Below the pieces are notes generated by a model. That model was not told the origin of the DNA and searched no databases. It worked only from the letters and a program-made list of their open reading frames with translations. From Catajapyx aquilonaris (lineage: Eukaryota), in assembly GCA_000934665.2 (NCBI GenBank), contig JYFJ02003019.1:1-47708 (forward strand): a DNA stretch of 47,708 nucleotides, read 5' to 3'. The position numbers and the translations under genes were made by a program. Shown piece after piece: positions 13,595 through 47,502 of this stretch (positions are counted from its first letter, which is position 1; each line of letters opens with the position of its first letter).

Positions 13595-13935
13595 CTTTTT
13601 TTCTTATACCCCATTAGAGAGAACTGTGCCCTTTTCAGGGGTGGCACACCACCATATTTTCAATTTTCAAGTGATTTTTTCTTCAAGGTCCGTGCAGAGA
13701 AGAAAGGACATGAAGTAAGGATGGGAAATTTTAGGGGAGGAGACACGGGTGCTGGTGCAATGTCTGAAACAGGGTCATGTGCAGTCTCCCTGTAGGTTAG
13801 GTTGCCAGACGCCTCCAAGGCGCGGGTTAGAGACCCTCCTGAAGCAGGCGAAAGGAACTCCCGGGCGGGGATCGAACCCGGGACCTTCCGCTCAGCAAGC
13901 CGAGTCGTTATCAACTCGGCCACCATGCCTCCCAT
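13595..13935 (-). mobile_element. tRNA-derived SINE, family C, full length
   Basis: Minus strand GGGAGGCATGGTGGCCGAGTTGATAAC...GGGTTCGATCCCC; similar to 21000-21359; A-rich tail; perfect TSD GCGTGACACAC at 13584-13594 and 13936-13946. Confidence 0.9.
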
Positions 13936-14555
13936 GCGTGACACACGTTTCTAATAGATATGACGCATAATGCAATTGAACGATCGTTATTGGATTGAGT
14001 CAGGAATTAGGCACTTCCATGCGCAGAATGAAGACGGGCAGATGCTCCAGATTAATGCTGCCGGGAATTGTCATTTTGATCGCAACCTGTCATTTTCTCT
14101 CCCGCTGGCGTTTAGCCGCAGATAACTCTGACTCGCCGTTCAGCATCAGACTACTCTAGAAGTTACAACGCGCGCAGTTGTCCAATAAATCACTGAGAGC
14201 GATTATTATGGCTGGTAGTCCTGTACATGATGCCGCGGGCAGGAGCAGAGATCACTTTCCGTGTGCTCGTAGTCCAGGGTTAATTTTGTTAAGCGCTGTA
14301 ATTCGCACAAAACTCAGGTTTCTCCCTTTCAGAATTAACCTTCCTAGAAAAATGATTTTGGAAAATTATGATACGTGCCTAGTACCACAGGTGCAGGATA
14401 CCATTCATATAGTAGAAAAGTACCCCGGTGTTGTGCTGAAAAATGTATACAGTTGAGGCGCTACAGCAGCCCTGTAAAGTTTGGGCAACAACTTCTAAAT
14501 AGCTATTGTAGTAATGTTAAAACTTAAAAGTGACTCGGACTATATATATATATAT

Positions 14556-14619
14556 ATTTCTCTGTCCATACTAAACATTATATTGCAATATAATGTTTAG
14601 TATATATTGACAGAGAAAT
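14556..14619. repeat. Perfect 36-bp palindrome with 11-bp outer arms
   Basis: ATACTAAACATTATATTG|CAATATAATGTTTAGTAT at 14568-14603; ATTTCTCTGTC / GACAGAGAAAT flanks. Confidence 0.9.
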
Positions 14620-15003
14620 GTGTCTTTGACCCAGTTTTGATACATGATGATTACTCTGCAGAAAGACCCCTTCGTATGATACAAATAACGCAGATAAGAA
14701 TGTTCAGTGCTAGTCGTTCAGTGCAAATTGAACGGAAATTACAAAAACGCAATAAATAAAGGCGATTTGGAACCGTTCTATTGAGCATAATAATCCCGTC
14801 TCGCTTACTCGATTCACAGACGTTTCATATCACCACGCCATTAGTTATATCGTGGGTTCTCTTACTGTCTTTTAATATGTATAGGCTACTAAATGAGAAG
14901 CACTGAACATTCTGATTTGCATTGTTTCTTCGAATAAGGCGTTACTCTTCATAATCATGTAACAATTAGGTTCGGTGAAGCATTTCTCAGTCTTTACTAG
15001 ATA

Positions 15004-15268
15004 CACTGTACTCCCGATCATCCGGGCTAATGACTGCATGGGTGTTTCCGGATAATCGGAAAACCCGGATAATAATCAGAAAATTGCCCTGGACATAGTA
15101 AGAAATGAGCGGCTATTCACAGGTTTTTAATGTACTAACTGTATAGAAAGTATGCTACTTGGTTGAATCAAAATTTTAAAAAACTTACCATAGATTTTTT
15201 ACTTTGTCTTCTAGAAAAAGTCTTATATTTATTTGTTGGAAAATCCCCGGATAATCTGGGGTACAGTG
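15004..15268. mobile_element. MITE with TA TSD (pogo/Tigger-like ends)
   Basis: TA|CACTGTACTCCCGATCATCCGGG ... CCCGGATAATCTGGGGTACAGTG|TA; internal CCGGATAAT repeats. Confidence 0.8.
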
Positions 15269-44111: not shown

Positions 44112-44369
44112 ACCGAAGCAGGTTGGTGTTGTGGTTAAGGAGTCCGACTTCTAATCGGGCGGTCCTGGGTTCGAATCCCGGGGCCGGAGACCCTGACAGT
44201 TGGTTTTCTGTGGTTTCCCACGGTCCCCCCAGGATAATTCCAAGGTCGCTTCCGTACAAATAGCCCACAGCCACTTCCTTCCCTATATCCTTGGTCCCAT
44301 CCAATGGTGGTACTCCACTCCCCTAATGGAGCGCCGCGCCGTTCTCCCAAATGGGGTATAAACAAAAAC
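44112..44369 (+). mobile_element. tRNA-derived SINE, family E (Arg-TCT-like anticodon arm; body resembles widespread insect SINEs)
   Basis: TCCGA-CTTCTAA-TCGGG anticodon arm, GGTTCGAATCC B box, body GGTTTTCTGTGGTTTCCC...CCAGG...CCACAGCCACTTCCTTCCC; perfect 14-bp TSD ACTACATATTATTT at 44098-44111 and 44370-44383. Confidence 0.9.
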
Positions 44370-45492
44370 ACTACATATTATTTGATGGCGTAACTTGGCT
44401 CTGTTTACTTGTACTGCGTTTGTATGCCGAAGGTTCTCCAAAATGATGGGAGTGGCCTGTATCTCCACTCTTTCCACTTCTTGTTGATAGTCACCTTATA
44501 ACTTTGGCATCATGGTAATTCTATATATATGGTACAGTACGTATGACGGTATGAGGCATTCCACGCTCAACTGGACCCCCCTCCCTGACAAATCTTTTCC
44601 GATTTCGACCAAACCCGAGTATGTTGTTGTACCCATGTTTCTGAGCAGGGCGGGCTCGTTTTGTTTGTCCCTGCGACGTGTGGTTGCATAACTATACAGT
44701 CTGCGAAAGATACCGATTTTTGCCAATTATACGTCCGTCCGCCATCAGTTGGAGGGCCATAACTTCGGAAGGCGCGGTTGACGTGGAATGCCTCATACGG
44801 AATATGCAAGCTGCAAGCTGTAAATTCATCTGAACTATACATTGTCGGTTCCGGATTCTGCAGTGCAGTTTTCAATTGACAATAGAATTTTCAAGAAACC
44901 ACGTAGGCCTACCTATTGAAACGCACCATGTTGGGGTTCTAGCCTACATTTTGCAAACCCATGCAAAGAATTGTCCTTATTTTTAAATGAATTTTGGTGT
45001 TTTCTGTTTGAACTGAGAAATAAATATTAGTTTTCGAGCTATGATCTATCTAAGATCATAATAATTATACGGTACTATCGTATTGCCCTCTGACGTCACT
45101 GTTGTCAAAGGATGGGTGAGAGGCAGGAATGCACCCGGGTTGCTTTGTTCCTTTGTTGCCTAACAACGGAATCGAACGACCGCAAGTAAAGCCGCGAGGC
45201 AAGGGCCTGCTGACGTCACTGTTGTCCCCTTGGTTAGGCAGGAGTGGGAATGCGCCTTTTAGGCCACGCCCCCGTTTTTCCCGCCAAGTTGCGAGTGAAA
45301 TTTAACCCCCCGATAATTTATCGAGGAATGACATTTTGGTGCCGAAAAGTGGTGGAATGCATGTTTATATGTATGGTTGAGCTATTCGTGTAGGCTACAA
45401 ATTACCCAAATCCCAGGCCAAAGCTAGGACCCCATTAGGCGCTTGTGTGCGAACAAAAATATGATTTCTATGAGAAGGCAGGATAAATGAAT

Positions 45493-45740
45493 ACCTCGGG
45501 GGAAGAACGATCAAGGTCCACTTCAGGTGAAACTGAGTAGGCCCTATTCCAATTTTAAATTTCGAAGGCCCATATAAGGTTACATTGCAAATCCCACTTT
45601 CGGGGCCTTCCATTGCGACCTATGATCATTGCTCCACAACCACGACCAAATCATCATATTCTACACTAAGGAAAGGATCTTCTGAGATATGGTGCTCATT
45701 TTTGACAAAGAGTGGACCTTGATCGTTCTTCCCCCGAGGT
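45493..45740. mobile_element. MITE-like element with perfect 30-bp TIRs
   Basis: ACCTCGGGGGAAGAACGATCAAGGTCCACT (45493-45522) and its exact reverse complement (45711-45740); no clear TSD. Confidence 0.75.
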
Positions 45741-47204
45741 CTTCAAATGGTTAATACTTTGCAGACTCTAATTAAACAGATCGTTTTCCTTCTAAATAAT
45801 TATAGGCTATATACGCATTCCAGCAGCCCTGCTTTCTATAAGTACTGTGGAACAAGAATTCATACGCAGTAATTCCGCGAAAGTAACATTAGGCTGGATG
45901 TTTGGTTTCCTCCTTCAGGCGCAGCTGCATTCATCCAGACCCTCAAAGCAATCCCGTCTACGAAACAAACTGCACCCGAGTCTATACTAAATAAGACAAC
46001 ACTGCATCACCGCCGCACTTCAACAACTCAGAAGAAACCCTAACAACCCCACGGGACATGTCACGTTCCTTCAACAGAAACACCCCCAAGGTTTTCGCAA
46101 TCCGGCTCTTGGGGAGCTCCACGAGCATCGTCGAGAAAGGTCACCCGTAGCAACAAAATTGAGTAAAACGTCAACCTGTACATCCCATGCCACAAAAATA
46201 TCGGATGTCCAAAAAAAAAGAGGATTACATATTCTGTATAGGCTGTGCTTTAGTAATCAAAGCTAGTTCAGGAAATATTAGCGCAAGTCAGAAGACTCAG
46301 AACGCAGTATAACTGTCTCTGTTCATGGCGCATGTACTTTGCATCAATTCGTATATGAGATTGATCCCCAAGTACAGTAAAACAAAACGATAAGCCCTAC
46401 AACTGTGGCCTCTTCACAAATGAACTGTAATTAACTTCGAAATTTCCCTCCTGCTCATTTCATTTGCAAACTAATCCATATATGGTTTAATTATAAAATT
46501 TTGTAAGCTAAACGAGCCTATAATCGGCATCTCGCTGTCATTTCACTTCCCAGAAGACCGCAGTGATGTACACGTATACAGAACTATACTACTGCATCTT
46601 TAGCTAATATACGTCGCATGATGAGTTTTTGCCCGGTGTAATGACGATGTTTGACTTCTCAAATAGGCCTATACTTAAAGAAGGGATTCAGTTTGCGTTG
46701 GAGAAATATTATCGTTGTGGTGCCGATATTTTGCTTCACGCGTGAACTGTATACCCAACAGCCTCCACCGTGGCTTCCAAGCACCTGTGGCCCCATGACA
46801 CTTCTATATACTGTGTGCTCCTTGCTCTTCGACCGAAGCCTTTAATCATCTTCCCAGAACGCCAACCTTGCTCTCCGACCTTTTATATGCTTGCACACAG
46901 AGTACCCTCACCTTACTATACGTACTGTACGTATAACTAACAGCACGGGACACTTCACAAAATCAATTCGGATAATAACACCAACGCGGTTCTGTCAGGA
47001 GCTCTAACAGCAGGTAGAGTATACTCCTACATTCGCACATATAAACTATTATGCTGTTGATATCGTGCGTGGACCTAAACCCAACCTCTGGAATATGCGG
47101 AATATTATTTTGTCAACAGTATGGGTACCTATAGTGATCAAGTCATTGACCGCGTACCACTGCATTTCCTCTTGATAACATGCGCATTTCATATCCTTCA
47201 AGTA

Positions 47205-47502
47205 CGTGCAGAGTTCGGGGTCATCTCTGGCTTCGTCTCGGGTGGGATTTCCGATAGACTAACCACCCGGGGAGTTCACAAAATGACCAAAGCAACGACA
47301 TTCCATTGCACTTTGCACATCCCCTCCTGTCATCCTGCCCGTGGGCCCGGGCGCGCGCTTCAATTAATAGGTTCCACTGTATAATGGTTCAATAAAGGTC
47401 CGTGTGATATACCCCCAATGGCCCCAAACCCATGATTATATTATTATTATTATTATTATTATTATTATTATTATTATTATTATTATTATTATTATTATTA
47501 TT
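47205..47502 (+). mobile_element. SINE family B, 5'-truncated copy
   Basis: Aligns to 18908 onward; (ATT)n tail; TSD ATATCCTT[C/A]AAGTA at 47191-47204 and 47503-47516. Confidence 0.9.

Follow-up and report, generated by a model that had tools for sequence, protein, structure and literature searches.

Separate causes probably underlie the recurrence of the U1A/SNF-type heptamer AUUGCAC in retroposons of a Catajapyx aquilonaris contig

Does the repeated occurrence of the heptamer ATTGCAC in short interspersed nuclear elements (SINEs) of one contig mean that these elements share an RNA-binding protein? Presented by a hairpin loop, AUUGCAC is the site in stem-loop II (SLII) of the U1 small nuclear RNA (snRNA) that is bound by U1A (SNF in insects). 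A sequence-only reading of contig JYFJ02003019.1 of Catajapyx aquilonaris (assembly GCA_000934665.2, positions 1 to 47,708; this whole stretch of 47,708 nucleotides (nt) is called the window) had found the heptamer in three SINE families, termed B, C and D, and had proposed that several families co-opt SNF/U1A. Our analysis argues for a different answer: the heptamer probably recurs for separate causes and not because of a shared SNF strategy. Co-option by multiple families is not supported, and D is left as a testable look-alike of SLII. In B and C the motif is a single inherited piece: it heads a slippage-prone TGCAC array that lies at the 3' end of a body homologous between the two families, and since the palindromic TGCA units can pair among themselves or with body sequence upstream, it is predicted to be hidden there. 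In a retroposon that carries a domain of U2 snRNA, the related ATTGCAG belongs to U2 stem-loop IV (SLIV), brought along by capture, as a match to Rfam shows. In D, finally, the motif appears to open the loop of a body hairpin that has been kept across subfamilies, with one compensated pair.

The heptamer and its host elements

The DNA of the window has a GC content of ~40% and contains microsatellites, small inverted-repeat elements and several SINE copies. The family letters are those of the sequence-only reading; which copies make up families A and E was deduced from their sequence. Families B, C and D fit tRNA-derived SINEs (SINE2), with a tRNA-related head, RNA polymerase III (Pol III) boxes, a simple-repeat or A-rich tail and multiple copies. 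B-box words are common to the heads of the SINE families, and the D head matches the tRNA model of Rfam with 17 bits, which is under the gathering score. ARAGORN detected no tRNA in the SINE heads, and Rfam gave no tRNA match for C1 or B2. A clear target-site duplication (TSD) was found for C1, and just AT-rich candidates for B1, B2 and D1. The elements on which the argument rests are the following.

18818..19231, plus strand: SINE B, copy B1; (ATT)n tail; motif at 19002-19008, the first unit of a TGCAC x3 array (19002-19020)
21797..22115, plus strand: SINE B, copy B2; motif at 21986-21992, in a TGCAC array as in B1
47195..47504, plus strand: SINE B, copy B3; 5'-truncated; the orthologous site 47300-47306 reads ATTCCAT, and the noted match at 47305-47311 comes from the next unit
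20999..21359, plus strand: SINE C, copy C1; 11-bp TSD (20988/21360); motif at 21175-21181, followed by a second TTGCAC
13625..13936, minus strand: SINE C, copy C2; motif at 13761-13755
22428..22750, minus strand: SINE D, copy D1; tRNA-like head (~22744-22673), structured body, two-tier hairpin tail, (AAT)n
22600..22627, minus strand: D body hairpin; 7-bp stem and 14-nt loop; closing pair 22621/22606, C-G here and A-U in other subfamilies
22614..22620, minus strand: AUUGCAC in the D loop, at its 5' edge; the family letter at 22613 is U
36631..36957, minus strand: U2-domain composite retroposon; internal U2 3' domain, two-tier hairpin tail, (CCAA)n, 16-bp TSD at 36615 and 36958

All six ATTGCAC sites that had been reported for B, C and D are where they were said to be, all on the sense strand of SINE copies that are either tRNA-headed or 5'-truncated. 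The accompanying caveat that a 7-mer is expected a few times by chance was also well placed: over both strands the window holds 11 matches against 8.9 expected, and 30 of 100 shuffles give at least 11. Five of the 11, absent from the sequence-only reading, fall outside SINEs, and these open a loop in at most 1.2% of sampled structures. On the SINE sense strands (2,887 nt), six matches are seen against 0.27 expected, and the only 7-mers common to all six B, C and D copies are CATTGCA and ATTGCAC. When six family representatives were shuffled 3,000 times, ATTGCAC was found in two families four times and in three families never; in the same shuffles a mean of 5.9 different 7-mers was common to at least three families. 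Thus, the concentration of ATTGCAC on SINE sense strands is real, yet inflated by common descent, and the surprise that the recurring heptamer causes depends on its fame, as the motif was picked after the fact.

Further copies were sought and none was retained. The B pattern had no match in the metagenome, viral and prokaryote collections. The D patterns matched 15 metagenome, two prokaryote and no viral loci, and the C pattern one viral locus; all 18 match just over the seed or slightly beyond it (13-27 nt) and were rejected as chance.

One inherited segment in B and C, and a captured one in the U2-domain element

The bodies of B and C are homologous: in three of four pairs none of 1000 shuffles reaches the observed score, and p=0.004 in the fourth. 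A shared ancestral domain, which the sequence-only reading had allowed for, is thereby borne out. Between the D body and B or C no homology is detectable (shuffle p 0.24-0.64 in all four pairs), and as the shuffle test does not support the MAFFT placement of the D hairpin on the central hairpin of B and C, we claim neither an equal nor a different position for the two. The motif therefore has two origins, not three; its presence in three families stands, their independence does not.

In B and C the motif starts a tandem array of TGCAC (three units in B, two in C), which is followed by a C-rich tract. The orthologous motif is intact in four of the five B and C copies. In B3 it reads ATTCCAT, with G4 lost, and the ATTGCAC at 47305 has been rebuilt from the next TTGCAC unit, so that it is not orthologous to the sites of B1 and B2. 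Within the body that B and C share, the words GGGTC and, further downstream, TGACC might pair around a central hairpin (18905-19000, 21888-21985, 21082-21165, 13780-13860).

What a binding site would have to look like is given by published work, cited here from excerpts of the papers. High affinity of the U1A family needs a stem-loop with at least 10 loop nt, and 8-nt loops bind poorly (PMC4114683). U1A contacts the C-G pair that closes the loop (PMC2203988, PMC4114683), and SNF tolerates a U-G closure at a threefold cost; the SLII loop of Drosophila reads AUUGCACCUC (both PMC5992148). No other loop base forms as many hydrogen bonds to U1A as G4, and the change G4A costs ~6.4 kcal/mol (PMC2203988); A1C weakens binding (PMC4114683). 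The change in B3 is G4C.

The predicted folds of B and C do not present the motif in this way. In full-length folds the probability that all seven motif nt are unpaired is 0.067 for B1, 0.066 for B2, 0.003 for B3, 0.019 for C1 and 0.111 for C2. Of 2,000 structures sampled per copy, those with a hairpin loop opened by the motif make up 1.7% in one copy, where the loop has 8 nt, and 0% in the other four. Local folds agree, except for B2 (0.31 unpaired), where still no loop is opened. Thus, in none of the five B and C copies is AUUGCAC predicted to lie unpaired at the 5' edge of a hairpin loop, which sets them apart from U1 SLII and U2 SLIV. For B1, closure of the motif by GCAACG/CGTTGC had been proposed. 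That stem is present (18994-18999/19013-19018), with the motif beginning at the third enclosed base and its UGC pairing with the following GCA; the 3' arm reads CTTTGC in B2 and B3, so the closure is private to B1. RNAalifold consensus folds pair the motif as well, over six of seven columns in B, at UGC in C and at UGCA in B and C combined. Hence co-option of SNF/U1A fails for B and C on a point that the sequence-only reading had itself named as decisive.

The U2-domain element accounts for the ATTGCAG that had also been noted in a loop. This loop is confirmed: ATTGCAG lies at 36789-36783 in an 11-nt SLIV-type loop with C-G closure (z=-3.0, probability of opening the loop 0.62), and in the excerpts of PMC5992148 the SLIV loop of Drosophila resembles it. 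A search with 401 nt gave the U2 model of Rfam at 33.7 bits (E 2.9e-5), under the gathering score of 46 and with a good alignment over the 3' half alone; a search with the whole window (E up to 1) returned repeat-driven matches only and missed even this domain. The U2-derived parts are an altered Sm-site region, which reads UAUUUCUUGG with an interrupted U-tract, stem-loop III and SLIV. They are internal, behind ~130 nt without convincing U2 alignment, and this 5' stretch starts with a T-rich run and a TATA-like word. A two-tier hairpin as in the tails of A, C and D, followed by (CCAA)n on the minus strand, favours minus as the sense strand, and an A-rich run before the plus-strand duplication leaves some doubt. 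The window holds one copy. As its loop was inherited from U2 snRNA, it adds no independent origin of the motif and is not a case of convergence. At another site, a SINE-head fragment (28200-28320, minus strand) is flanked by CGAGTGGG, which is also found in the TSD of the U2-domain element (36615-36630) and is possibly a preferred target word.

These results bear on the broadest alternative, in which SNF/U1A/U2B'' would serve B, C, D and the U2-domain element alike as a cofactor. It would fit with the two heptamers that are exclusively common to all six copies, with a motif kept between B and C despite gaps and divergence elsewhere, and with the intact C-G-closed SLIV that the U2-domain element retains; AUUGCAC was also recovered in linear contexts by systematic evolution of ligands by exponential enrichment, according to the excerpts of PMC2203988. 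However, the motif of B and C is predicted to be paired while high affinity needs a stem-loop (PMC4114683, in excerpt), G4 is lost at the orthologous site of B3, B and C count once, and families A and E lack the motif, as had been correctly stated. We consider a common cofactor extremely improbable. The co-option idea survives for D alone, where the geometry of the copy in the window matches the published rules; it extends neither to B and C nor to convergence of the U2-domain element.

The body hairpin of family D

In D1 the hairpin GGGCAGC/GCTGCCC, which had been described from the sequence, is recovered both as the minimum free energy structure and by sampling. AUUGCAC takes the first seven places of the loop, which has 14 nt; the stem has 7 bp and closes with a C-G pair. 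The motif opens the loop with a probability of 0.65, and the hairpin has z=-1.5. The loop thus exceeds the 10 nt of the published rule. D shares with U1 SLII the position of AUUGCAC in the loop, the stable stem, the C-G closure (in the subfamily of the window) and the UCC that follows. It differs in that the SLII loop has 10 nt, that D is mostly closed by A-U and that its stem shows no U1 homology by Rfam, where searches with 275 nt and 101 nt gave no U1 or U2 match for D at E up to 10. Side by side with these features stands the setting of D1, which is embedded in a long AT-rich minisatellite (22112-22475, 22749-23085) directly downstream of B2.

Variation among copies was surveyed in assembled contigs of three of five sequencing runs, here called X1, X3 and X5, of which X1 and X3 stem from the same sample. 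Of the words in a test stretch, four DNA runs of one sample contain 84-92% and a single run of a second sample contains 5%. D contigs that mapped to 22478-22748 with at least 80% likeness gave 919, 806 and 27 records in X1, X3 and X5, which indicates that D is a multi-copy family; the cut-off drops divergent D loops, which are thus under-sampled. These family-level conservation data cover D alone, not B or C, and the depths given below are contig depths, which do not equal copy number. In X1 the depth falls from 74,835 at 22632 to 7,722 at 22613; for X1 and X3, the latter position retains 10-15% of the depth of the former.

Within the motif (22614-22620) no variant reaches 2% in any of the three runs. 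The adjacent 22613 differs from the letter of the window in 99.6-100% of the depth, from which it follows that the C of the window is private and that the family loop begins AUUGCACUCC. At the closing pair, 22621 is A in 86% (X1), 83% (X3) and 98% (X5) of the depth, and 22606 is U in 16% (X1), 17% (X3) and 98% (X5). The residual depths of the two sides match (3,700 vs 3,871; 2,275 vs 2,420; 8 vs 10), many A-type contigs are clipped at 22609 and contain the U arm in their loose end, and both changes must be present in one X5 contig (depth 421). A-U is thus the majority closure of D (83-98% of the depth at the 5' side, with U opposite where contigs reach the 3' side), and the motif is kept across at least three D subfamily haplotypes. 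In local folds the C-G forms open the loop with probabilities of 0.64-0.67 and two A-U haplotypes with 0.50 and 0.56. Full-length A-U chimeras on the background of the window gave 0.02-0.05, values that are unreliable, as they mix subfamilies and leave out the proper flanks.

The motif does not clearly stand out from its surroundings. It is matched in invariance by loop positions 8-11 and, in the stem, by five of the six remaining pairs; in a subfamily one stem pair is disrupted (22626; 14% in X1, 87% in X5). None of the seven motif sites varies against 10 of 45 in the region, and a clean 7-nt block arises by chance with P=0.15. In two low-depth X5 contigs a C replaces A1 and a 12-nt loop is closed. 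Moreover, at least 17 X1 and at least 15 X3 contigs share the 5' arm but are clipped at the loop, with the consensus TTT(G/C)CCTTCCC (agreement 0.55-0.57), which is without A1 and A6. They represent either a motif-less subfamily or a blur of length variants; some D-related contigs appear to lack the motif.

Several observations weigh against separate causes. The D family loop equals the vertebrate U1 SLII loop over 10 nt (AUUGCAC and UCC), and in 20,000 shuffles of D the motif arose 74 times, in no case at the 5' edge of a loop with 10 or more nt. The closing pair switches between C-G and A-U on both sides, a single compensatory event during which the motif stays at loop position 1, and an uncompensated change collapses the open loop (0.001, local fold). 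Variation in the loop is confined to positions 12-14 at its 3' end, on the side not read by U1A. The body word that B, C and D share most widely is CATTGCAC. Furthermore, the pairing that hides the motif in B and C is predicted only, with no covarying pairs in the consensus folds of B, C and both combined (0/35, 0/29, 0/4), and to open it would by prediction cost just 1.4-3.5 kcal/mol, or 0.7 in the local B2 fold, a price within reach of a tight binder.

The D observations in this list, together with the absence of motif variants and with the window subfamily's loop position, loop length and C-G closure, would suit an explanation in which D alone is a selected mimic of U1 SLII. Its Pol III transcript would recruit SNF/U1A, which would protect the RNA or keep it nuclear or in a ribonucleoprotein (RNP) until the reverse transcriptase of a partner long interspersed nuclear element (LINE) copies it; the U-G closure that SNF accepts at a threefold cost (PMC5992148, in excerpt) may be counted in its favour. 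Against this stand the A-U closure of the majority, a motif that is not detectably more conserved than its neighbours, the A1-to-C variant and the probable motif-less relatives; moreover, there is only one compensatory event, the likeness cut-off drops divergent loops and the motif was picked post hoc. We consider such a mimic unlikely.

In a second alternative, the D loop is kept since its GCACUCCCU part pairs with the G-rich 5' leader in a kissing interaction or pseudoknot, and the heptamer would be half of an RNA-RNA contact. Between the D family loop and the first 16 nt, a duplex of -13.1 kcal/mol is predicted (shuffle p=0.056), the leaders of B2 and C2 are predicted to pair with a stretch that runs from the motif to 34 nt beyond it (6.2 and 11.1 expected pairs), and such a contact would account for the invariant UCCC, which U1A ignores. 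However, the p value is marginal, the tRNA-like 3' strand pairs equally well (-13.3), the pairing is not seen in B1 and C1 (1.2 and 0.1 pairs) and ViennaRNA cannot model a pseudoknot. Leader pairing seems very unlikely.

Returning to separate causes, the D hairpin has most likely been retained because it serves the folding of the SINE RNA, with a loop sequence that would go back to a few master copies. Judged by the published rules, the C-G form of the hairpin would probably be able to bind SNF/U1A in vitro. That this binding is selected in the life cycle of D appears doubtful; most likely, the compatibility of D with SNF is incidental rather than selected.

Related retroposons, other features of the window and implications

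Comparable elements are known from other animals. The SINEs of termites share the layout of head, body and tail, the TSDs and the simple-repeat tails with those of the window, and, like B and C, they include one body in families with different heads and tails (PMC9191728, in excerpt). By eye only, a GTCAGG..GGTCTCTG-plus-hairpin stretch of the termite element Talua resembles the start of the C body. In the excerpts of PMC9191728, four termite consensuses show no SLII-like loop, with Talub having GTTGCAC only, and TTGCAC occurs 0 times in its supplement file 5. The SINEU elements of crocodilians are retroposons with U1- and U2-derived sequence, and the middle 83-bp U2 fragment of SINEU-3 resembles the U2 3' domain at 36.76-36.83 kb of the window (PMC4494074, in excerpt). 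According to the same excerpts, SINEU heads are snRNA-derived and the tails are poly(A). In contrast, D has a tRNA-like head with no snRNA homology detected by Rfam, and the U2-domain element is without the U2 5' end, carries a two-tier tail and (CCAA)n, and is present in the window as a single copy. In the open-access literature (titles and the openings of abstracts; subscription journals are largely missing), no tRNA-derived SINE with a U1A/SNF site was found.

Families A and E, which are without the motif, have related bodies (shuffle p=0.001) at 12088-12334, 16585-16760 and 44113-44370, and E carries a 14-bp TSD. The body of A may be V-domain-like and that of E like the locust Lm1 body. 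A two-tier hairpin before a GGGTA-like end and a simple repeat is seen in different SINE families (16721-16757, 21292-21327, 22481-22514, 36660-36703), and this shared tail points to a common LINE partner.

Small terminal-inverted-repeat elements lie at 7859-8129 and 40717-40990, 29071-29476, 11530-11696, 45488-45745, 5337-5460 and 30071-30141. One of them is present twice, with the copies ~82% alike, and the ATTGCAC at 30101, outside the SINEs, is inside such an element. Two likely exons on the minus strand (37285-37518 and 38230-38352) would encode a small secreted low-complexity protein with a signal-like N-terminus, a Gly-rich stretch and VVHK(I/V)P repeats; this protein is presumably cuticle-protein-like. 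A Pfam search with three short open reading frames gave one weak match, LED-repeat (E 0.011).

For SINE biology, the replacement of body parts appears common (PMC5786205), and the conservation of SINE domains has been called a major enigma, with function undemonstrated (PMC5804259), as stated in the excerpts of these two papers. Against this background there is one more alternative: at least two retroposon lineages might present a U1A/SNF-type hairpin, D by mimicry of SLII and the U2-domain element by capture of SLIV, with the snRNP (small nuclear RNP) protein serving as a host cofactor for RNA stability or RNP assembly. We hold this to be quite unlikely; if true, a SINE body domain would gain a defined protein ligand. 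If D does not bind, what we describe is ordinary SINE anatomy. The loop of the D body hairpin matches one of the best-characterised RNA-protein sites, which makes a hypothesis on the conservation of SINE bodies directly testable.

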